This document shows, one piece after another, positions 2,570 to 30,220 of a stretch of 41,577 nucleotides of DNA. Under the pieces are notes generated by a model. It was not told the origin of the DNA. It made no database searches and saw nothing but the letters and a program-made list of their open reading frames with translations. A program made the position numbers and the translations under genes. The DNA is from a virus: the IMG/VR virus record IMGVR_UViG_3300045988_115369. One strand, given 5' to 3'. Positions within the stretch are counted from its first letter, which is position 1; each line of letters starts with the position of its first letter.

Positions 2570-2935
2570 TTACTTGCTTTTCTTCACAAGCACAATTTTC
2601 AATTTATATGCCGTGTCTAAATGGTTGATATGGGTAACATCATCAAAGCAATATGCAACTAAGTTCCCTGCATAGTCACAACGTACCTTGAGAGTGCGCC
2701 CTGCATAAAAGCACACATCACCTTGTGCAATATCAGGTGAATCGTAACTACTGAATTTTTCAAGAATTTTGATTTCAATGCATTCCCATTTACCGTTTTC
2801 ATAACCTTCTTGCATTGCTATGAAATTTGAAATGCTGCCTTTAATCCTGCCGATAGCAAATTCATCAAACATAATCAACCCATTGTCTTTTGTCCATGTG
2901 TTCATGCCCCATGCCGTGATTTCTTTTCTTTCCAT
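2570..2935 (-). CDS. First early protein, function unknown
   Basis: Start moved to the ATG at 2935 (RBS GAAAGGAAG). The stop lies 2 nt from the 5' edge of hammerhead B. Confidence 0.6.
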   Translation of the reverse strand: MERKEITAWGMNTWTKDNGLIMFDEFAIGRIKGSISNFIAMQEGYENGKWECIEIKILEKFSSYDSPDIAQGDVCFYAGRTLKVRCDYAGNLVAYCFDDVTHINHLDTAYKLKIVLVKKSK

Positions 2936-3436
2936 GATTTTTCTTCCTTTCTGAATGTGTTCCGTTGTTCCTACACGCTTAACAAAAAAATTTGAGACAC
3001 CATCTCTTGATGGTTGGAATACCACTGATTAGTTCAATGGTTTAGAGACTAGATACAGCATGATTTCACTACCTTTCACCTACACCGTTCCATTTCATCG
3101 TCTGCGCTTGCCCCGTCATCACAAGATACCTTGCTAGACGTTGTAAGCACACACTCTATGAGACTGTCCACTACTCAGCCCTGCCGTATATCGCAAGCTA
3201 CTTTCATGACTTCTCAGTGTGTATCTTCACTGTCATGTTGCCACCGCTTTTCCCGATGACTTTCTTTTTTTCGTATGGTGTGAATTGATACTACGCATGC
3301 AGTAAGTTCACCATTCGCATTTTTCAGCTATTCAGTTTTCAAAGAACCCGATGATGTTTTGGGGTATCCCATCGCGTCACCGTCAATTTTTCGTTCTTAG
3401 TGGTATCACTTCCTTTCGTTCGTTCACTGTGCCTAC

Positions 3437-3465
3437 ATTGTAGCACGTTGTTCCTACATTGTCAA
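3437..3465 (-). promoter_or_regulatory. Host sigma-70/SigA early promoter P1
   Basis: Minus strand TTGACA, a 17-nt spacer and TACAAT, with an extended -10 TG (TGCTACAAT). Confidence 0.85.
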
Positions 3466-3654
3466 GAAGATTTTTCCTCTAGTTCTCTCTGTCGTCTTAC
3501 CATTCCGCCGTGAATACGTTGCCGTTCGCGTTCGCAATGTGCGTTGTTCTGAGTTCTTCCACCACGCTATCCATACATGTGCTACAGATAGCATTTTCAG
3601 AATCGGGGCGGTGCGCCTTGCGGTGTTCCGTCCGTGTCATCCTTGACTGTCCAT

Positions 3655-3683
3655 ATTGTATCATGATGTTCCTACACCGTCAA
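3655..3683 (-). promoter_or_regulatory. Host sigma-70/SigA early promoter P2
   Basis: Minus strand TTGACG, a 17-nt spacer and TACAAT, with an extended -10 TG (TGATACAAT). The spacer is a paralog of the P1 spacer. Confidence 0.85.
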
Positions 3684-3825
3684 GGATAAATTTGCATTTC
3701 TTTGTGGAGAAATTTTGTTCGCATGGTATACCATACCCCCGTAGGGTATCCATGATTGTCAACCATGGCATGCTAGTAGCACGTTAGTAGTAAGAGATTA
3801 AATCTTACAAGTACATATATAGGCA

Positions 3826-3847
3826 AACAGGGCTTGCTCGCCCTGTT
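3826..3847. terminator. 8-bp GC-rich hairpin between the integrase region and the early control region
   Basis: AACAGGGC-TTGCTC-GCCCTGTT. The minus strand continues with TTTGCC. Confidence 0.4.
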
Positions 3848-3862
3848 CCATTTAAGTATAAT
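3834..3862 (+). promoter_or_regulatory. Candidate host-type promoter for the integrase
   Basis: Plus strand TTGCTC, a 17-nt spacer and TATAAT. The -10 sits inside the palindrome GTATAATA-A-TATTATAC. Confidence 0.4.
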
Positions 3863-4005
3863 AATATTATACTAATACATTCCACCCTGCCCCAGCGATA
3901 ACGGCGAGCGCGTGGAGGGTACGGGGGAAAACAGCCGGGGCAATTTTAATGAATACCCTTTCACAATTTTTATAATTTTTTGTTTTAAGAAGGAGGAACA
4001 TCATC

Positions 4006-5160
4006 ATGAAAAGACAAAGGGCACCACGAGGGCAAGGAAGTATCACACCATACGGAGATGGAAAATTCAAAGGCATCATCACCATTGGATACAAACTAGA
4101 TCCAGTGACGAAGAAGAATAAACGTCTCACAAAAACCTTTACAGGAAAGACAAGGAAAGAAGTTCAAGCAAAGATCACTGAGTATCAGTACAAAGTAAAT
4201 GCAGGGAAGATCAATCCATTGGCAGCTCCCCTTACATTCAAACAGTACAGTGAACGATGGTTAATGATGAAAAAGACAACACTGAAACCACAGACATACA
4301 GAAACTATGAGAGTAATATGCAGTGTCTTGATTTTGGCAACAAAGTGATGAAAGACATAACAGTTTCAGACGTCAACACGCTGCTCCTAACATTGCTACA
4401 GACACTCTCCCCTGCCACTGTACGAGGAAGGCACACCCTATTGAAAAGTGTCTTTGAAGGAGCAAGAAAGGAAAAACTCATTATAGAGAATCCTGTAGAA
4501 GACAGCATGCGTATCAAGGCACAGGTAGATCACACTGTGACAGAAATGCATGTCTTAACGAAAGAAGAGAGTACGAATGTTCTATTAAAAGCTAAGGAGA
4601 TGAAAGCTCCCATATGGTTCTACCCTCTGATACGTACTGCCTTAGAGACAGGGATGAGAAAAGGAGAGCTGCGTGCCTTACAGTACAAAGCACTGGGTAA
4701 AGACACCATCTATATAAAAGCAAGTGTAGAAGACAGTGCAGGGAAAGGGGCAACTCTCACAACGCCTAAGACACGTGCCTCTGTAAGGAGAATACATGTG
4801 TCTACATCACTCATTGAGATACTACAGGCTCTTCCCCATAAAGATGAAAACAGTTTTGTCTTTCACACTAAGAATGAGACTTTAATTGCTAATAGTGATA
4901 TACAGTACTACTTTAATACGCTAAAGAAAGTAAGTAACATAGACAAACCACTTCACTTCCACGATCTAAGACACACCCATGCCACCCTTCTTATCATGGC
5001 AGGTGTGAACATCAAGACCGTCTCTACTCGCCTAGGTCACGCATCTGTATCCATCACGTTAAACAGGTACACACACGCCCTTCCGCAGCAAGATAAAGAA
5101 GCTAGTGAAATGATTTGTAGTATGCTACTATCGGATACTACGATGAAAGACAATCAGTAA
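4006..5160 (+). CDS. int: Tyrosine recombinase / phage integrase
   Basis: RBS AGGAGG lies 8 nt upstream. The N-terminal Arm-type DNA-binding segment is GSITPYGDGKFKG...GKTRKEVQAKI. Catalytic motifs are HDLRHTHAT and LGHASVSITLNRYTH. It is the only plus-strand gene. Confidence 0.95.
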   Translation: MKRQRAPRGQGSITPYGDGKFKGIITIGYKLDPVTKKNKRLTKTFTGKTRKEVQAKITEYQYKVNAGKINPLAAPLTFKQYSERWLMMKKTTLKPQTYRNYESNMQCLDFGNKVMKDITVSDVNTLLLTLLQTLSPATVRGRHTLLKSVFEGARKEKLIIENPVEDSMRIKAQVDHTVTEMHVLTKEESTNVLLKAKEMKAPIWFYPLIRTALETGMRKGELRALQYKALGKDTIYIKASVEDSAGKGATLTTPKTRASVRRIHVSTSLIEILQALPHKDENSFVFHTKNETLIANSDIQYYFNTLKKVSNIDKPLHFHDLRHTHATLLIMAGVNIKTVSTRLGHASVSITLNRYTHALPQQDKEASEMICSMLLSDTTMKDNQ

Positions 5161-5212
5161 TAAATACCCTAGATACCCCTATAGAATGTAATTGGGGTAC
5201 GTATATACATCT

Positions 5213-5261
5213 AAATACCGTATGACATAATATCGTCCTTATTAACAGACATACGGTATTT
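5213..5261. terminator. 12-bp inverted repeat between the convergent int and membrane-protein genes
   Basis: AAATACCGTATG, 25 nt, CATACGGTATTT, then TTCTG. The loop is large for a classical terminator. Confidence 0.4.
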
Positions 5262-5310
5262 TCTGTATCTTTTAGGGATAATACTACTATCTGGCTACTA
5301 CCTCTTCTAA

Positions 5311-5910
5311 TTAAAATCTAATCTTATAACTTGCTTGAAATCCATCAACTTTGTTGTCTTTGACATTCAGTTGGAAAGACACCCCTTTATTGTACCCAAA
5401 ATTCCTTTGTACTTCAATGGGAACGTACCATTCATTAGACACCCTTCCTATCCCAGCACCCACTTCCCACTTGTGCTTCTTTTCGTAGTCTTTGAAGATT
5501 GGTGTGAGGTCTAGCGTTTGATCGACACGTGCAGTGGTGGGAGTGGAAGTAGTAGAGGATGAAGGAGAAAGAGGTGTGTCTTTTAATGTTTTTTTAATGT
5601 ACTTATCTTTAACTGGTATCTGAATGTCATTACCATTGATGACTGCATGATAGTGGTTATTCAGAATCAAATCTGGATCAGACGTATTGGTTTTACTTGC
5701 TGCTGTTATTTCAGTAGTCAAAGAGGGTGAAGTATAAGAATCTGTAGTTGTAGTTGTTTTTGTTGTTCCTTCTTTATACCCTTTATCATACCCATAATGA
5801 TAAATCATTGTTGTTGTTCCAATAAAGAAAATCATCAGAATAATAACAATAAGGATATTTCTTTTATTTATATCATTAAAATCAATCACTTTAGAATCAC
5901 CTATTTTCAT
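5311..5910 (-). CDS. Membrane-anchored Thr/Ser-rich protein with an OMP-like C-terminus
   Basis: Start at ATG 5910 (the ORF track uses GTG at 5952). It has an N-terminal TM helix (ILIVIILMIFFIGTTTMI), a T/S-rich linker, and ends with the alternating pattern GFQASYKIRF and a terminal Phe. Confidence 0.6.
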   Translation of the reverse strand: MKIGDSKVIDFNDINKRNILIVIILMIFFIGTTTMIYHYGYDKGYKEGTTKTTTTTDSYTSPSLTTEITAASKTNTSDPDLILNNHYHAVINGNDIQIPVKDKYIKKTLKDTPLSPSSSTTSTPTTARVDQTLDLTPIFKDYEKKHKWEVGAGIGRVSNEWYVPIEVQRNFGYNKGVSFQLNVKDNKVDGFQASYKIRF

Positions 5911-6088
5911 TCTCAATACTGTAATAAAGGATGTAGACCTTCGGTGTGTCACATTGAAAGTTCTAATAGTTTACACACATAGTGATTCACATGCTATACC
6001 TAGTGCAGGAAACATATATCTCTTATTTCATAGAGTTCCAAGTTACAGAAACAAGAGATACATGTATATAATATAGATTCCCTCAGTC

Positions 6089-6111
6089 TCCCTTTCTACG
6101 TGCCACAATTA
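6089..6111 (-). promoter_or_regulatory. Phage-RNAP promoter phi-2
   Basis: Minus strand TAATTGTGGCACGTAGA|AAGGGAGAC. Confidence 0.8.
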
Positions 6112-6115
6112 GAAC

Positions 6116-6138
6116 TTTGTATATATGTGCCACAATTA
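6116..6138 (-). promoter_or_regulatory. Phage-RNAP promoter phi-3 (tandem with phi-2)
   Basis: Minus strand TAATTGTGGCACATATA|TACAAAG, 27 nt upstream of phi-2. Confidence 0.75.
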
Positions 6139-6162
6139 GGCTTTCTTTAGGTCTTTCCTAAA

Positions 6163-7959
6163 CTAGAGTTGTCTTTTATATGAAACTTTCTCCGCTGTGT
6201 TTAGATCCTTTAACATTGCCAGTTTCACCTTGCTATAGTTCTCTCTGCCAACAGGTCTAGGGTTTGTCTGATTCAGTTCTGGAATATAGAAGATACCTCT
6301 GTCTGGGTCATCCCATTGTTCAAGTAATTCATCAAGCTGCTCATCCATCCCTGTTTGATAATCCCTATCCATAGAGTTAGCAAAGAACTCTACAGCCATA
6401 GTGACAGCATCCAGTCTATCATCATGAGCAAGTGCCCCTCTTTCATTGGTGAGACGTGTCATTTGATAGATTAAAGAATAGTTAGGACTAGATTCATACG
6501 TCTTATAGTCAGCAGTGATTACCCCTTTATTGACAATGAGCTTGTGTCTCATCATAACAGGTTCAAGGGTGTCTATAATACGCTGTTCCTTCTGTGCCTT
6601 ACTTCTGATTTCTTCCAAAGCACATGGATAGATTCTGGTAAAGATAGGAGCAAGAAGTTTGCCAAACATACCATCACCAAAGTTAGATTCATAGACAACT
6701 GTGTTGACCTTCCAGAACTTAGCTTTGTTAGCCAGTGTCTCCAATGTGTTATCGCTGTAACCAGAGGTATAACCACCACTTTCCATCAAGAACAAATAGC
6801 CATTAAGGTATTTGATGATTGCATATGCTGTTTCATCCTTACCACGTCCAGATGGGTCAATAGCCATAACTGTTCCAGTGTATTCAGCTGTTTCTGGGGA
6901 CTGCAAGAGAGGAGAATAGAAGTAGTCACCTTTAAGAGCAACAGACGCAATGTCTTTCCATCTCTTTGTAGGATCAGCAGTCCAAGACCATTTTAGACTA
7001 GCTTCATTCATGTCCAAATCCGCTACAATCAAGTCCTGGACTTTAAGTGGATACTTCTCTGCATCAGATAGATTCGTACTGAGCATGAACTGAAGAGCAA
7101 ACCCAGCCTTACCATAAGACAGTTTACGCTTCTCAATTTCCTCTAGATTGAATCTATCAGGGTCTGTAGGTATGCACTTATCAGCATAAAACTCTGGGTC
7201 TGTATCATAAGAATCTGCGATAAAGGGGGCTAAATCATCCCCATATGCCTCTCTTTCTTCTGTAGATGCTGGATATAAGACAGGCCAGATGCATCTGCTA
7301 TAACCACGTTTAGTTAATTCATTATAGAGACTCATTTCATTCTGAGGAGTTCCCAAATAAATGATTTTACCACCAGGTTTTAAGATTGCATCAAATTCCT
7401 TTACAGCCTCTCCTAGTTTATCCCTCTGTATCTGAGTGCCTGAATTTTTAGGTACTTCTACGTCATCAGCAATCAGAATGTCTGCACGAGAACCTGTAAT
7501 CTGCCCTGTGATCCCTACAGACTTTACAGAAGGAGAAATATCAGGAACAGCAGGGCCGACATCAAATAGATTCTGGGTATCTCGCTGTCCTCGCTGTGTC
7601 TGTAAATGCTGCAAGAAAGGTATCAAGTAAATAATACGTTTAATAAAAATAGCATTCGCATCTGCTCTATGTTTAGATGCAGATACAACTAATACCTTTA
7701 ATTGAGGGTCTTTCCAAAGCATCCAAACTGTGTAAGCACAAGTCAAAAAAGACTTTGCTACCCCACGGAAGCCCTCAACGATACTTCGGTCTGTAGGGGT
7801 GTTCATAAGGTACTTTGCAATATCATATTGGATAGGTGTAGGGTCTGGAAGACTAATAGATTTCCAGACAATGAACACAAAGATACGAAAGTCCTCATGC
7901 GCCCTTTTAATTTGATCTTCTGTCCAGCATGCTTCTGTAAAATCAGTTAAGTCGATCAA
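6163..7959 (-). CDS. terL: Terminase large subunit (T7 gp19-like)
   Basis: 598 aa. Walker A-like GFRGVAKS, the ADDVE segment, a C-terminal nuclease region, and the T7 gene position. Confidence 0.93.
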   Translation of the reverse strand: MIDLTDFTEACWTEDQIKRAHEDFRIFVFIVWKSISLPDPTPIQYDIAKYLMNTPTDRSIVEGFRGVAKSFLTCAYTVWMLWKDPQLKVLVVSASKHRADANAIFIKRIIYLIPFLQHLQTQRGQRDTQNLFDVGPAVPDISPSVKSVGITGQITGSRADILIADDVEVPKNSGTQIQRDKLGEAVKEFDAILKPGGKIIYLGTPQNEMSLYNELTKRGYSRCIWPVLYPASTEEREAYGDDLAPFIADSYDTDPEFYADKCIPTDPDRFNLEEIEKRKLSYGKAGFALQFMLSTNLSDAEKYPLKVQDLIVADLDMNEASLKWSWTADPTKRWKDIASVALKGDYFYSPLLQSPETAEYTGTVMAIDPSGRGKDETAYAIIKYLNGYLFLMESGGYTSGYSDNTLETLANKAKFWKVNTVVYESNFGDGMFGKLLAPIFTRIYPCALEEIRSKAQKEQRIIDTLEPVMMRHKLIVNKGVITADYKTYESSPNYSLIYQMTRLTNERGALAHDDRLDAVTMAVEFFANSMDRDYQTGMDEQLDELLEQWDDPDRGIFYIPELNQTNPRPVGRENYSKVKLAMLKDLNTAEKVSYKRQL

Positions 7960-10768: not shown

Positions 10769-12295
10769 TTATGCCGTCCTCACCCAAGCTCTTACCAAGT
10801 ATGAAGGAGGCTGAACGGTGTTAGATGAACCGTAAATGGAGTTAGATTCAGAAGCGTTAAAACTTAGTTGTGTATTTTGATTCCCCCCATCCCCAGAAAA
10901 GAATCCTCCTTTTCTTCCGGAATTAGTACTACTAAGTGCTCCTTCCGTAAAAATGATAGGCATAGATGTTGAGCTATTTGTATAACCAAATTCTGCATGA
11001 CCTGTAATATTTGGCAATCCTGCACTTCTCTGTGTCCCTGCTTCACTTGCATTGCCTGTCTGCAAGCAGAGGTTAGCAGGTACTTCTTTCCATGTTCCGT
11101 ACTGCATAAAAGGGAAATCCGCTTTTGTTTTACTCTTATCTGCGGAAACATATACAGTTCCGATGGGGTAGAATGTGTCTATTAAATTGATAAGAGTGCT
11201 ATCTCCCCCACCTTTAGTGACAGTTATCTTGCCGTTCGATTCTGTGACAGATTGGACGTACTGCGTAGGATCCCACGTCTTTGCATTTTCTTCACTTTGC
11301 TTCGCTGCCTTTGCACTGTTAGATGCATTTGTTTCACTAATTTTTGCCTTAGATGCACTGGTAGCTGAATCAGAAGCCGAAGAAGCAGATGCAGAAGCAC
11401 TATTAGCACTTGCACTCGCACTCTGTTTAGAAGCATTTGCACTGTTCGCTGAATTAGTGGCAGAGGATGCACTTGCATTCGCACTGGACGCAGAAGCGCT
11501 CGCCGAAGCAGCAGAGTTACCAGCAGATGTCTTTGCTTCTTCTGCCCAAATCTTTGCTGACTTATTGCCAGAGACACCATCTGGACTAGAAGAAGACATA
11601 GCCCACTTCTTAGAGAGTTCTGCACTATTACTAGCATCATCTGCTTTAGTAGCTGCAGTATCTTTCAGTGTTGTCATTGTACTCACATAAGCATTGCCAG
11701 TATCAGTAAGACGCTTATTCTGCGTGTCTCCTGTAGCATCCAAGCGTGCATTCTGTGAATCCCCAGTAGCTACAATAGAGCTATTCTGTGTTGCCCCTGT
11801 GTTTTTAAGTTGATTTAAGAGACTGTCCTGATTAGCTTTGATGTATCTAAGAGTTACAACATCTCCATCCTCAATAGGATCAAGAGCATTGATAATTCTT
11901 TTATACTGCCCATCCCAGCAATTAGGGTTATCATACGCAGTAGACATACCAGAATCAAAGACCTTATCCGCTGTTTCTTCAGCAAGATGCAAGAGTTGCA
12001 CTTCCTGTAAAGACAAGTCTGCACTTCTAAGTACAGAAGCATCCTGCCATTCTACCAGAGGAGCAGTAGTTGTCTCACGATAAATCTTAACAGAATGCCC
12101 AAGTGGAATCCCTTTTACAAGTCGTACCTGTTTGTCTTCTACCGTATAATCCACACCCATAGTAAGTTCTGTAATATTGGTATAAATATCTTCTACCTTT
12201 ACAAACTTCTTCCGTAAATAATCAAAAGGGAATGCATAGACAAGCTGACTAGCATTCCCTTCATAAATTACAGAAGCCTTTCTTTCTTTAGCCAA
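10769..12295 (-). CDS. Tail fiber (T7 gp17-like N-terminal adaptor domain)
   Basis: The N-terminus (YAFPFDYLRKKFVKV...VKIYRETTTAPLVEWQDASVLRSADLSLQEVQLLHLAEE) matches the T7 tail-fiber N-terminal domain pattern. It is followed by an Ala/Ser-rich shaft and a distinct C-terminal domain. Confidence 0.88.
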   Translation of the reverse strand: MAKERKASVIYEGNASQLVYAFPFDYLRKKFVKVEDIYTNITELTMGVDYTVEDKQVRLVKGIPLGHSVKIYRETTTAPLVEWQDASVLRSADLSLQEVQLLHLAEETADKVFDSGMSTAYDNPNCWDGQYKRIINALDPIEDGDVVTLRYIKANQDSLLNQLKNTGATQNSSIVATGDSQNARLDATGDTQNKRLTDTGNAYVSTMTTLKDTAATKADDASNSAELSKKWAMSSSSPDGVSGNKSAKIWAEEAKTSAGNSAASASASASSANASASSATNSANSANASKQSASASANSASASASSASDSATSASKAKISETNASNSAKAAKQSEENAKTWDPTQYVQSVTESNGKITVTKGGGDSTLINLIDTFYPIGTVYVSADKSKTKADFPFMQYGTWKEVPANLCLQTGNASEAGTQRSAGLPNITGHAEFGYTNSSTSMPIIFTEGALSSTNSGRKGGFFSGDGGNQNTQLSFNASESNSIYGSSNTVQPPSYLVRAWVRTA

Positions 12296-12310
12296 AGTTA
12301 AGCTCCTTTA

Positions 12311-15300
12311 CTATTTAACATTCATGATTGAAGAAATATCAGAATTTGCATTGCGATTGTTCCCAGAAGCAGCACCAATCTTATAGCGGTTCTTTCGTTC
12401 ACGTTGCTTCTTCTCCTTATTCATCTCTTTCCGTTTCTTTACACCGCTTGCATCTCTAATTTCAGATGCAAGGAGTGTCATGCCCCAGAATCCATTGAAT
12501 GGGATAGTCTTCATAATATTTGCCATATCTTCCTGTGATATGCCATCCCCCACTGTAGAGTTATAGACACTTTCTCCAACCCCTAAAATCGGATTGATAG
12601 TAGAAGAGACAGCTGGCATCTGATCTACTGCACGCCCTGCAATAGAACCTGCTTTCATATCTTTCCCTGTCCCTGAGGTCTTAGAAGAGTTATCTACTGT
12701 AGTACGCATCATAGGCGTACCAGTCAGAATCTCATAGATGTCTGAACCAAAGGAAGGGATAGAGCCAGTGATAGCCCCACGCGAGAAAGCAGCCCATGCA
12801 AGTCTACCTGGTGTCAACTGTTTAGCAATGTACTCTTTTCTTCCTTCTGGATCATTAGGGTATTTCACCGCCGCTCTAAGATACACCAAGCCCATATAAG
12901 ACATGCAGTTCGTTCCCATTGAAGCTAGTGCAGCCAGTGCATCATCCATCTGACGAGAAGACAAAGCTCTGAGTGTCTGGTCATTCACTGCACGAAGAGA
13001 ATAATCTTTGAACTGAAACAACAGCTTAGTAAACCAGTTCTTTTCCTTCAAAAGAGGGGTGTTCCCGATAGACATCTGCTGAATACCACGTCTGCTGTAG
13101 TTTTCAAGCAGATTTCTAAATTCAAAGAAAGTCTGATGGTCTTCTTTTCTCCATTTGTCAAATACATCTGGGTCAACTTTGCCACTATCAAGATATTTTT
13201 TGATGTGTGCTTTCAGTTTGTCTACATCCTGTACATGTGCTGCATCCAATAAATATTTGCTGAATGGATCACGAGTACTGGAAATCTTTTCTCCTCTAGC
13301 CCATTTGATAGCATCAATGAAGCCACTTTCCCTAGTCTGTCTAATCATCCAGTCGGTAAGTTTAGGAAGCTGATTTAGAGTAGATGTAACATTGGAGAAT
13401 ATCTTCATTGTCTCCTGTGCCTTATCAAGTCTCTTTCCCCAGACACTAGAATAACCAAGGGCGTCTCTAAAAGACCGTGCTTCATAATCAGAGTTCCTAT
13501 CCCAGAATCTAGTATTCAGTTCTCTTCCATACAATCTTACCTGTGCTTCTTTTGCAAAATCTTCCAGTTCTTTTTCAGATGCAGAGAGCATAGCACGTCT
13601 CATCTGTCTAAGGATTGGAATGGACTTATACAAAACACGAGTTCCTGCGTATGCCATTGCAGAACCAAATTCACCAAGCTGTGCCATGAACATCTGTCCA
13701 CCAACGTCTGCATAGGATTTAGTTCTGAACAATTCAGAGAAAGCATCCCAGAGAGTTTTAGGCTTTGTGTCTACATGTGTAGAGAGCAAGCGAGACATCC
13801 CTTCTGTCAAGGCATCTTTCTGTTCCTTTGCTGCTGACTTAGTAATCTTACCTGCTTTAATGCCTAATTCAAGCTGTTTTGCCACATCATCAAGCACACC
13901 AGTTTGTCTCCAATTTCCGATGGAATCAAAGACAGCCACTTCACCACAGACACGATCAATGTAGGAATTGATGATTCTGTCTGTATTCACATCGCGAAGA
14001 TGAGAATCAAATGAGAAATCAAGTGTTGTCCCTGCTTTGTTTGCGATAGGCATGCGTACTGTAGTATCCATAGGAAGGCGAGATTTCAAAAACTGGGGAA
14101 TACTTACACCATATTTACCACCAGAGAAGCATGTCTCACTGGCGTTCTGGTCAATAACACCTCTAGCCCAAGCCTTACACCTCTTATCAATCTCTTCCTC
14201 AACCATAGCCTTCGTAACCTTTTCAAGCTGAGGTTCTTCTGGAATAGTAGAAGTGTCTAGTTCCAGTTGCTTTCCTACTGTCTTTTGATAGCCAGCGTCT
14301 TTAAGAGCTTTCCCCTGTTTAGACCGTTTATTTGTCTCATTAAATTCTGGTTTAGGTACACGCCCACTAAACATGCGTTCTTCCCATTCTTTATGAGCTT
14401 TGAGGTAGCGTCTCTTTGCATCTGCTTCCATCTGCTTTCTGACAACATCCCTCTTACATGCCATCTGAGCATATTCATACATCTTTTTCATGCATGTCTC
14501 AGTGTCACCATCCATAAAGTCCACAAGGCGTGTCAGCATCTCATTGTCTACTTTACGAGTAAATTCAAGATCAAGCGGTTTCCAGTCTTTATCAATATAA
14601 CTACCGTAACCCCCACCCCCATGAAACTGGGAATCTTCCTGCATCATTTCCAGACACCCTTCTCTGATCTTTTTAAGAGTATCTGCTGCTTTGATGACCT
14701 CTGGCTCCCAAATCATTTCATTCGGAGACAACCCAGCTTTGTTTCCTGCATACTGTGCATTGAAACACTGCTGTACCTGTCTATCAAATTCCAGTCTATA
14801 CTGCCCCTGAAATTTATAGAATTTATTTTTCTGCAACCAAGCATTTCTAGCATCATAATAATCATTGAGCATTGGTTTTACCCGTTGCTGTAAATATTGT
14901 TTGATACGTTCACCGACAACAGGATTAGCTCGTGCTGCAATTCTTCCTCGTGTCGGTTCAAAGAGAAAGTCGTTCAAGCTACGAACTGCAAGAAGTCTTG
15001 AATGACCAAGTACGCCATAGATTGTCTTAAACAGCCCATCTGCTTCCAGACGTTTCCCAAGACGTGTAGGGAACCAGTGAGGCAAGGAACGCTGCATCCA
15101 GTCATCCACTTCTTTCTGTTCAGCATCCCATACCATTTCAGCATGGAAGTTGACAGGGCTATCCTTATCAAAAGCAGTGTCGTAAATGTACGCTGTACCA
15201 TCTGGGGATACCTTGATAGGGGTGTCTCTATACTTCTGTTCATACGCAGAAGCCTTTACCCACTTCAAGAGTGTCGAATCTTTGGGCTTTTTCGTCTTAA

Positions 15301-23755: not shown

Positions 23756-23831
23756 TGGTGTCTCTTTAAGGACTTGAACCTTAAACCTTCTGGGCATGAA
23801 CCAGATGCTCTAACCATTGAGCTAAAGAGAC
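23756..23831 (-). tRNA. tRNA with anticodon CAU (elongator Met or Ile2 type), CCA encoded
   Basis: The 76-nt sequence folds by hand as a cloverleaf: acceptor GTCTCTT/AAGAGAC, D arm GCTC/GAGC, anticodon arm TCTGG-TTCATGC-CCAGA, T arm TAAGG-TTCAAGT-CCTTA, discriminator A, then CCA. It is not initiator-like: the 1:72 pair is G:C and there is no triple G:C in the anticodon stem. Confidence 0.93.
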
Positions 23832-30197: not shown

Positions 30198-30220
30198 TCC
30201 CCTTCTACGTGCCACAATTA
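30198..30220 (-). promoter_or_regulatory. Phage-RNAP promoter phi-4
   Basis: Minus strand TAATTGTGGCACGTAGA|AGGGGAAGAG. Confidence 0.8.

Follow-up and report, generated by a model that had tools for sequence, protein, structure and literature searches.

Evidence that a temperate T7-like phage of the human gut integrates just upstream of the smc gene of Dialister

The 41,577 nucleotide (nt) stretch of DNA analyzed here, IMG/VR virus record IMGVR_UViG_3300045988_115369 (the whole of it is called "the window" below), is very probably the genome, excised and assembled as a circle, of a temperate T7-like podovirus that infects Dialister (phylum Bacillota, class Negativicutes, family Veillonellaceae). 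It carries a tyrosine integrase gene, int, and comparison of attachment (att) site sequences makes it highly likely that this integrase is real and active and inserts this common phage of the human gut just upstream of the Dialister smc gene. A preliminary description, made from the letters of the window alone, had proposed a temperate T7-like phage with a functional integrase, and both integrated copies and att matches are present in host genomes. The window is a circularly permuted assembly of a 41.5-kb phage genome whose 119 terminal bases are identical at both ends; all of the assemblies on hand are circularly permuted, and elsewhere this takes the form of scaffolds of about 82 kb that contain two genome units.

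Integration at a single chromosomal site

The integration site was identified as follows: Near-identical integrases (97–99% identity) occur on contigs far longer than the phage, and on two of these (L003 and L005, 285 and 133 kb long; L numbers denote fetched homologous contig regions) homology to the window stops at position 5244 on the int side, beyond which lie bacterial genes (MatE or Orn/Lys/Arg decarboxylase, then Spore_YtfJ, WYL and PAP2). On the other side, a scan of species-representative genomes for the large terminase subunit, TerL, found a 100% identical TerL on the 2.5-Mb contig of a cultured isolate, Dialister sp. i34-0019-2H8 (L009); here homology breaks at 5226 on the TerL side, and the neighboring gene is smc. 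The two breakpoints overlap by a 19-bp sequence that lies 66 bp beyond the int stop codon. With the host flanks joined across this 19-mer, a pattern search of human gut metagenome contigs gave 29 uninterrupted empty attB sites, and 46 loci were sorted by their flanks into 8 attP, 3 attL, 6 attR and 29 attB states (Table 1), all with the identical 19-bp core. The phage integrates at a single chromosomal site by way of attP and an identical 19-bp attB core, and the cultured isolate Dialister sp. i34-0019-2H8 is a lysogen. The preliminary description had offered two intervals in which attP might be sought; the core falls inside one of them (5161–5310), while prophages are collinear with the window across the other (3690–4005), which is thus not attP.

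Some points weigh against an active integrase. The evidence for excision, virion production and lysogenization consists of sequence states in assemblies, attL and attR come from separate contigs (those of L005 and L121 are of a size to span whole prophages), and no Pfam or PHROG match to an excisionase (Xis, or recombination directionality factor, RDF) was found among the early open reading frames (ORFs) tested, a kind of search that easily misses small RDFs. Is int then a relic in an effectively lytic phage, the integrated copies being old, decaying prophages unrelated to present Int activity? The lack of an excisionase match, and of a classical CI repressor among the proteins searched (Pfam, PHROG), would fit such an idea, as would the precedent of LUZ100 and other int-carrying T7-like phages, which gave no stable lysogens (PMC10134795). 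However, free and integrated forms are 94–97% identical in DNA sequence and agree in gene content over the parts seen, the 199-amino acid (aa) protein encoded beside attP has the identical sequence on free (attP) and integrated (attL) contigs, the junctions are exact at one 19-mer across nine independent prophage loci, and int retains all of its catalytic residues and is under purifying selection, as follows from its low pN/pS of 0.07–0.13 among close variants, whose changes are mainly synonymous. We consider a relic integrase very improbable. That the host-phage junctions are chimeric metagenome assemblies and not true insertions is scarcely credible: most junction loci do come from short-read metagenome assemblies and one scaffold (BRIT16-1 scaffold_142), which has an internal attP and a terminal attR, could be an assembly-graph artifact, but L009 is from a cultured isolate genome, the same breakpoints recur with independent assemblers and samples, and the host flanks are contiguous in the 29 empty sites.

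Scaffold_142 itself (ERZ28570029; L125 and L128; 82,394 bp) carries an internal int-attP and a terminal int-attR with about 190 bp of host DNA. Either this is a double lysogen in tandem, or the assembly ran through a mixture of free and integrated forms; the scaffold of L120 is likewise about two genome lengths long (82,399 bp).

The attB core lies in a divergent intergenic region of about 320 bp between a MatE-family gene and smc, 27–45 nt upstream of the smc start codon (from the end of the core it is 8 nt to the smc ribosome binding site (RBS) and 26 nt to the ATG). A tRNA-type attachment site was ruled out, since no tRNA is present in the att flanks of L003, L005 and L009, and the sole phage tRNA gene is far from att. 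In the prophage all phage genes read toward smc, with int at the opposite end beside attR. Integration takes the rest of the 320-bp upstream region away from smc, so the expression of smc in lysogens needs explaining. At attB (for example L094, 4725–4775) the left edge of the core cuts an extended -10-like element, TGTTATAAT, 36 nt upstream of the smc ATG, which becomes TGTTAATAA or TGCTAATAA in attL; a scan for sigma70-type promoters called none at attB, and this element was spotted by eye only. The last phage gene ahead of smc in the prophage is the one that encodes the 199-aa protein, which has no Pfam or PHROG match and of which at least 300 sequence variants (90–100% identity) are present in public assemblies. 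A weak promoter-like site within the 3' end of this gene (L009, 12537–12565) reads toward smc.

The integrase

Int is an intact three-domain lambda-type tyrosine recombinase (arm-binding-like, core-binding and catalytic domains), and the preliminary description was right to call it full-length. It matches PF00589 (Phage_integrase) with an E-value of 3.7e-26, its SAM-like core-binding domain is identified by PF14659 (residues 77–125, E-value 2.1e-9) and forms a helical bundle at residues 78–155 in the predicted structure, and the catalytic hexad R218, K255, H319, R322, H345 and Y355 is invariant in a 32-sequence alignment of Int homologues. The Arm-type N-terminal domain that had also been proposed is found in the predicted structure and in no Pfam model: residues 1–85 gave no match to a Pfam arm-binding model even at E <= 10, which speaks against it, so the argument for such a domain comes from the predicted fold. 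In the AlphaFold2 (AF2) model of Int (mean predicted local distance difference test score, pLDDT, 85) the N-terminal region has strands at residues 11–15, 21–31 and 38–47 and a helix at 50–65 (pLDDT 76–86), and the model supports an arm-binding-like domain at about residues 10–65. Foldseek aligns the model with full-length lambda Int (1z1b/1z1g/5j0n) over 363–378 columns at 18–20% identity; its best structural match is Tn1549 Int (template modeling score, TM, 0.64–0.77). Outside its own phage clade, the sequences most like Int are integrases from phages of Bacillus, Geobacillus, Clostridium and Streptococcus (27–31% identity).

The position of int is also as first described, between the late end of the genome (TerL and the 199-aa gene) and an early control region (about 1 kb of non-coding DNA, 3026–4005), and it is the sole gene on its strand: gene calls, ORF tiling and PHROG matches place all the other called genes on the minus strand.

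Organization of attP

The core has the classical inverted half-site layout, with TAATA (5228–5232), TCGTCCT (5233–5239) and TATTA (5240–5244) in order. From this symmetry we infer that TCGTCCT is the 7-bp overlap region, and strand exchange would take place within it, between the flanking TAATA and TATTA. On either side of the core lies one arm of a perfect 12-bp inverted repeat, and attB has neither arm. The predicted RNA fold of this region has an energy of -17.4 kcal/mol (z = -4.8), a T-rich tract comes next on the plus (int) strand, and the region is likely to be the int terminator and/or to contain protein-binding sites. On integration one half of the hairpin goes to attL and the other to attR, so that free phage and prophage must make int mRNAs with different 3' ends; in the free phage the repeat would end int transcription. 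In lambda sib retroregulation, too, the 3' context of int is changed on integration, and the geometry of the attP hairpin here is reminiscent of it.

Which sequences might bind the N-terminal domain of Int? The genome has just two exact copies of ATRCTACTAYC, which start at 5122 and 5281 and flank the core, and each has a degenerate copy one helical turn on (at 5135 and 5292). Tandem pairs are kept at equivalent positions in two more distant relatives, L118 (Int 60% identical) and L119 (54%), and the L118 equivalent of the P'-arm pair is CATGCTACTA / CATGTTACTA. One fact tells against this assignment, namely that the P-arm pair also encodes a conserved LL..TT peptide of Int, so that its conservation is not purely at the DNA level and is ambiguous. 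By sequence, the tandem ATRCTACTAYC pairs nevertheless appear to be better arm-site candidates than the hexamer considered next, and the Int N-terminal domain would bridge to them (two sites in the int 3' end and two in the P' arm) in building the intasome.

The preliminary description had suggested that the hexamer ATACCC/GGGTAT, enriched on both sides of int, marks arm-type sites, and that a palindrome (below) overlaps the int promoter; we regard it as unlikely that these are the arm-type sites and the int promoter or operator, respectively. The local enrichment does stand: The six copies (start positions 3362, 3733, 3744, 3953, 5164 and 5173) lie within 1–2 nt of where they were first placed, and theirs is the most enriched of the 1985 hexamer classes in 3300–5300, with a raw binomial p of 2.7e-4 (1.1e-5 when only the non-coding flanks are counted) that is borderline after multiple-testing correction and applies to a region picked after the fact. 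Over the whole genome, however, the class shows no excess (20 copies, close to expectation, 6 of them within 3300–5300), and we take the local enrichment as suggestive, not compelling. Two copies are 9 bp apart in the P arm, 48–62 bp from the core, and the related AAATACC begins both arms of the inverted repeat around the core, but the four upstream copies are 1.27–1.86 kb from the core, past int, and so cannot be classical arm sites, and the P' arm (5245–5310) has no copy. In addition, the second P-arm copy is ACACCC in L005 and L006, and both P-arm copies are absent from L118 and L119, in which the CTACTA pairs are kept. Two of the six hexamers form a 6-5-6 inverted repeat upstream of the early promoters (ATACCC-CCGTA-GGGTAT, 3733–3749), which is conserved in L003 and L005 and not in L118 or L119.

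The palindrome had been reported as an 8-1-8 repeat, GTATAATAATATTATAC, and is found at exactly the reported position, 3856–3872; our repeat search extends it by one position on each side to 9-1-9 (Table 1). It is identical in L003 and L005, so that three close lineages share it, and is not alignable in L118 or L119; from its sequence it could be a promoter or an operator. As for the promoter, the candidate TTGCTC-N17-TATAAT (3834–3862) agrees with consensus at 9/12 positions and its -35 hexamer at 3/6, and it was not called by the consensus scan, both of which count against it. A GC-rich hairpin just upstream holds the TTGCTC "-35" in its loop and was not called as a terminator. A second candidate int -10 (TATAAT, 3971–3976) lies in a block that is conserved in the distant relatives and is followed by the RBS AAGGAGG (3990–3996); part of this block, GGGTACGGGGGAAA, was considered as a repeated motif and rejected, as it occurs once. 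The int leader (3866–4010) has no significant RNA structure (z = +0.6), and an Rfam search of 2900–5500 gave nothing at E <= 1.

The P arm also contains an element with 2 mismatches to the phage RNA polymerase (RNAP) promoter consensus (below), the only promoter-like element on the int strand; it points across the core, and in the prophage it aims outward into host DNA. In L118 and L119 (both at 11197) the element at the same position tracks the promoter consensus of each lineage. It could have a role in replication, packaging or transcription through att.

Table 1. Coordinates in the window of the features discussed, with the integrated loci by att state
Feature	Coordinates	Strand	Basis or remark
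attP common core CATAATATCGTCCTTATTA	5226-5244		Homology breakpoints; identical in attP, attB, attL and attR
attL loci			L009 (cultured Dialister isolate), L121, L122
attR loci			L003, L004, L005, L126, L127, L128
int, 384-aa lambda-type tyrosine integrase	4006-5160	+	Pfam, alignment, predicted structure
12-bp inverted repeat AAATACCGTATG (5213-5224) / CATACGGTATTT (5250-5261)	5213-5261		Repeat search; perfect, brackets core
Candidate P-arm arm-type sites ATGCTACTATC (5122-5132), ATACTACGATG (5135-5145)	5122-5145	+	Within int 3' end
Candidate P'-arm arm-type sites ATACTACTATC (5281-5291), TGGCTACTACC (5292-5302)	5281-5302	+	Same orientation as P-arm pair, non-coding
ATACCC-N3-ATACCC	5164-5178	+	P arm
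Phage-RNAP-promoter-like element TAATTGGGGTACGTATATACATC	5189-5211	+	attP P arm
9-1-9 palindrome AGTATAATA-A-TATTATACT	3855-3873		Repeat search; TATAAT on both strands; 134 nt upstream of int ATG
GC-rich hairpin AACAGGGC-N6-GCCCTGTT	3826-3847		Repeat search
Conserved block GGGTACGGGGGAAA ... TTTCACAATTTTTATAATTTTTT, then RBS	3915-3996	+	Alignment
199-aa gene beside attP	5311-5910	-	N-terminal hydrophobic segment, Ser/Thr-rich linker; driven by the two phage promoters at 6099-6111 and 6126-6138
TerL, T7-type	6163-7959	-	Pfam
RNAP, single-subunit, 854 aa	38982-41546	-	Pfam, PF00940 (E-value 1e-101)
Phage RNAP promoters TAATTGTGGCACR, then purine-rich start region	164-176, 6099-6111, 6126-6138, 30208-30220, 35636-35648, 38291-38303, 38504-38516, 38528-38540	-	Motif scan
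Early host-type promoter TTGACA-N17-TACAAT (11/12)	3465-3437	-	Promoter scan; TGTAGGAACA in spacer
Early host-type promoter TTGACG-N17-TACAAT (10/12)	3683-3655	-	Promoter scan; TGTAGGAACA in spacer
Candidate immunity module: promoter TTGACA-N17-TACAAT (38969-38941), ribbon-helix-helix genes (38728-38907 and 38538-38708)	38538-38969	-	Pfam, PHROG, motif scan
tRNA-Met (CAT)	23756-23831	-	Between capsid and tail tubular A genes, same strand as phage genes

The T7-like genome plan

Aside from int, the genome follows the T7 plan on a single strand, in the order RNAP, gp2.5-like single-stranded DNA binding protein (SSB), endonuclease I, amidase, primase/helicase, DNA polymerase, exonuclease, portal, major capsid protein, tail tubular proteins A and B, internal proteins, fiber and TerL (PHROG and Pfam matches; endonuclease I, T7 tail fiber and DUF3310 domains are among those detected on the minus strand). 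The RNAP is 36% identical to RNAPs of the T3/T7 group across 95% of its length, which is the maximum against GenBank phages, and a megablast search of GenBank phages with the int region (3000–6200) gave no nucleotide match.

The phage RNAP promoter family has eight minus-strand copies, and at <=2 mismatches there are 9 matches, a number reached by 0 of 100 shuffled sequences. The consensus is lineage-specific (TAATTGTGACACT in L118 and TAATTGTCACACT in L119). Two of the copies lie between TerL and the 199-aa gene, and that at 164–176 is directly upstream of the RNAP gene, so that any RNAP made would amplify its own expression autocatalytically. Between early genes there is a 54-nt direct repeat (1831–1884 and 2517–2570, 91% identical) with an internal inverted repeat, CTAGACACA...TGTGTGCCTAG, at which the early transcript may be processed or terminated.

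Early promoters and a candidate immunity system

How might such a phage keep lysogeny? By sequence, two near-consensus minus-strand promoters of host type in the early control region would drive the early genes. The spacer of each contains the 10-mer TGTAGGAACA, which has four perfect copies in the genome, all on the minus strand and all in regulatory positions: 3449–3458 and 3667–3676 in the two spacers, 2966–2975 just upstream of the first early gene, and 38972–38981, where it abuts another host-type promoter just past the RNAP stop codon. This last promoter is straddled by a 10-bp inverted repeat (ACACACCTAT/ATAGGTGTGT) and precedes two genes for ribbon-helix-helix (RHH) proteins of 56–59 aa, which match RelB/RHH_9 in Pfam and Arc/CopG-like repressors in PHROG. 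The spacer motif differs by lineage (GGGAGTACA in L003, GGATACAC in L005 and TGTGATAACAA in L118), and in the window, L005 and L118 a further copy precedes the RHH genes. The N-terminal beta-strand of the RHH fold is the part that reads DNA, and its residues vary among the window, L003 and L005 with the C-terminal halves conserved.

The simplest model, to which we give about an even chance, is that RHH proteins keep lysogeny by blocking the early host promoters. The host-type promoter that follows the RNAP gene would express one or both of these proteins, which would bind the lineage-specific 10-mer within the spacer of each of the two strong sigma70-type early promoters; the early genes would then stay silent and no phage RNAP would be made. 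Two things count against this model: in L003 the early motif GGGAGTACA and the site upstream of its RHH genes, TGTACACACA, match in part only, and the RHH proteins could instead be antitoxin-like or regulators of middle genes, RelB-like RHH proteins often being antitoxins. Lysogeny might then be kept by some other early protein, or by a small RNA from the 1-kb non-coding region, and the 10-mer would be the site of that factor or a mere feature of the spacer. Six early ORFs without recognizable function could supply such a protein, but no toxin-like partner was recognized and the second gene of the pair is also RHH, a consensus host promoter of their own, overlapped by a palindrome, serves the RHH genes, the recognition-strand residues vary while the remainder is conserved, and the Rfam search above, which takes in the non-coding region, gave no match. 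We think this alternative possible, though on balance doubtful.

Relatives, including prophages of other Negativicutes

In relatives whose Int is 54–60% identical, int has kept its place and its antisense orientation, with the early region on one side and the gene that follows TerL on the other. L119, one of these relatives, has a different integration site, beside a type I restriction-modification locus. In another, L118, the RNAP is called as two ORFs (1498–2403 and 2710–4347; 301 and 545 aa, both PF00940) about 300 bp apart, and this could reflect a frameshift, an assembly error or an intervening element.

T7-like prophages with TerL proteins 64–66% identical to that of the window are present in Megasphaera hexanoica (L011) and Pectinatus frisingensis (L010). 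Neither smc nor int is found near the TerL end of either prophage, so these phages use other sites. The Megasphaera prophage (L011 chromosome, 11692–13680) stops about 650 bp short of a co-directional miaB-like-mutS-mutL cluster; here, too, the late end of a prophage is just upstream of housekeeping genes.

Comparison with known systems

Integrase-bearing and genuinely lysogenic T7-like phages are established, and include cyanophages, pelagiphages, Agrobacterium phage Pasto, a Pseudomonas putida KT2440 prophage and LUZ100; for several such phages, according to the LUZ100 paper, firm evidence that they enter and maintain lysogeny has stayed ambiguous (PMC10134795). Pasto, Pelagibacter phage HTVC019P, LUZ100 and the KT2440 prophage have a MarR-Int module: just ahead of the RNAP gene, and reading in the direction of the other genes, int shares a transcript with a MarR-like regulator, and in LUZ100 and the pelagiphages a tRNA-Leu sequence adjoins int (PMC10134795). 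The Dialister phage shares with them the T7 plan with a single-subunit RNAP, a tyrosine integrase and an early region driven by host promoters, and like LUZ100 (phi1) it has a phage promoter directly before the RNAP gene, a positive feedback that a repressor must prevent. In the Dialister phage, by contrast, int is antisense, and six early genes as well as the 1-kb control region come between int and the RNAP gene. A Pfam scan of 17 of its proteins matched no MarR-like regulator; the candidate regulators here are of the RHH type, and their genes lie downstream of that for the RNAP. Its attB lies in the smc leader, in flanks that lack a tRNA, the host belongs to the Bacillota, and the RNAP is no more than 36% identical to that of any GenBank phage.

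Lambda offers a second comparison. Both phages have a three-domain Int, an attP beside int, a short identical core in which inverted core-type half-sites enclose a 7-bp spacer, (candidate) arm sites in both arms, and a sequence 3' of int that is altered by integration. Unlike lambda, the core here is 19 bp long, Int is only 18–20% identical, the arm sites are hypothetical, Xis is not recognized, and attP is downstream of int, where it overlaps the putative terminator. Outside its phage clade, Int is closest in sequence to integrases of Bacillota prophages and in structure to those of the Tn1549/Tn916 family, but these reside in siphovirus-type or transposon modules beside CI/Cro-like genes, whereas here the integrase is grafted onto a T7-type genome. 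Finally, the RHH proteins resemble P22 Arc and Mnt and the CopG repressors in their small size and in having their own promoter overlapped by a palindrome, besides the PHROG matches given above; they are unlike them as putative prophage repressors that would act in promoter spacers, where the 10-mer is a single direct copy per promoter with no obvious palindrome.

Significance

Temperate T7-like phages as such are already known; what is new here is the host phylum, the attachment site and the lysogeny module. A literature search on Dialister or Negativicutes together with Autographiviridae or T7-like phages found virome surveys and two passing mentions of the Megasphaera hexanoica prophage, and earlier surveys of T7-like prophages may list prophages of Negativicutes. 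We tentatively suggest, as a possibility that goes well beyond integration itself, that this phage is the first example, and one open to experiment, of a lineage of temperate T7-like phages in the Bacillota (Negativicutes) that has relatives in Megasphaera and Pectinatus, and that its lysogeny circuit is unlike the MarR type: fast-diversifying RHH repressors would act on lineage-specific operators in early-promoter spacers, smc expression would depend on prophage-borne sequence, and a phage RNAP promoter would point outward at the attR end.

The finding is moderately surprising to specialists. It extends T7-like phages to diderm Bacillota, which we did not find described in the searchable literature, and it adds a clear natural case of lysogeny in a group long viewed as strictly lytic, in which lysogeny is a recent and contested idea. 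The compact Int/attP/attB set and the new pairs of RNAP and promoter may serve as genetic tools for Negativicutes. For this one phage, loci in all four att states exist in nature, its variants at 90–100% protein identity occur in hundreds of assemblies, and it is the combination with a cultured lysogen that makes the find useful: with both in hand, the lytic/lysogenic decision of a T7-type transcription program becomes directly testable in a common human gut anaerobe.

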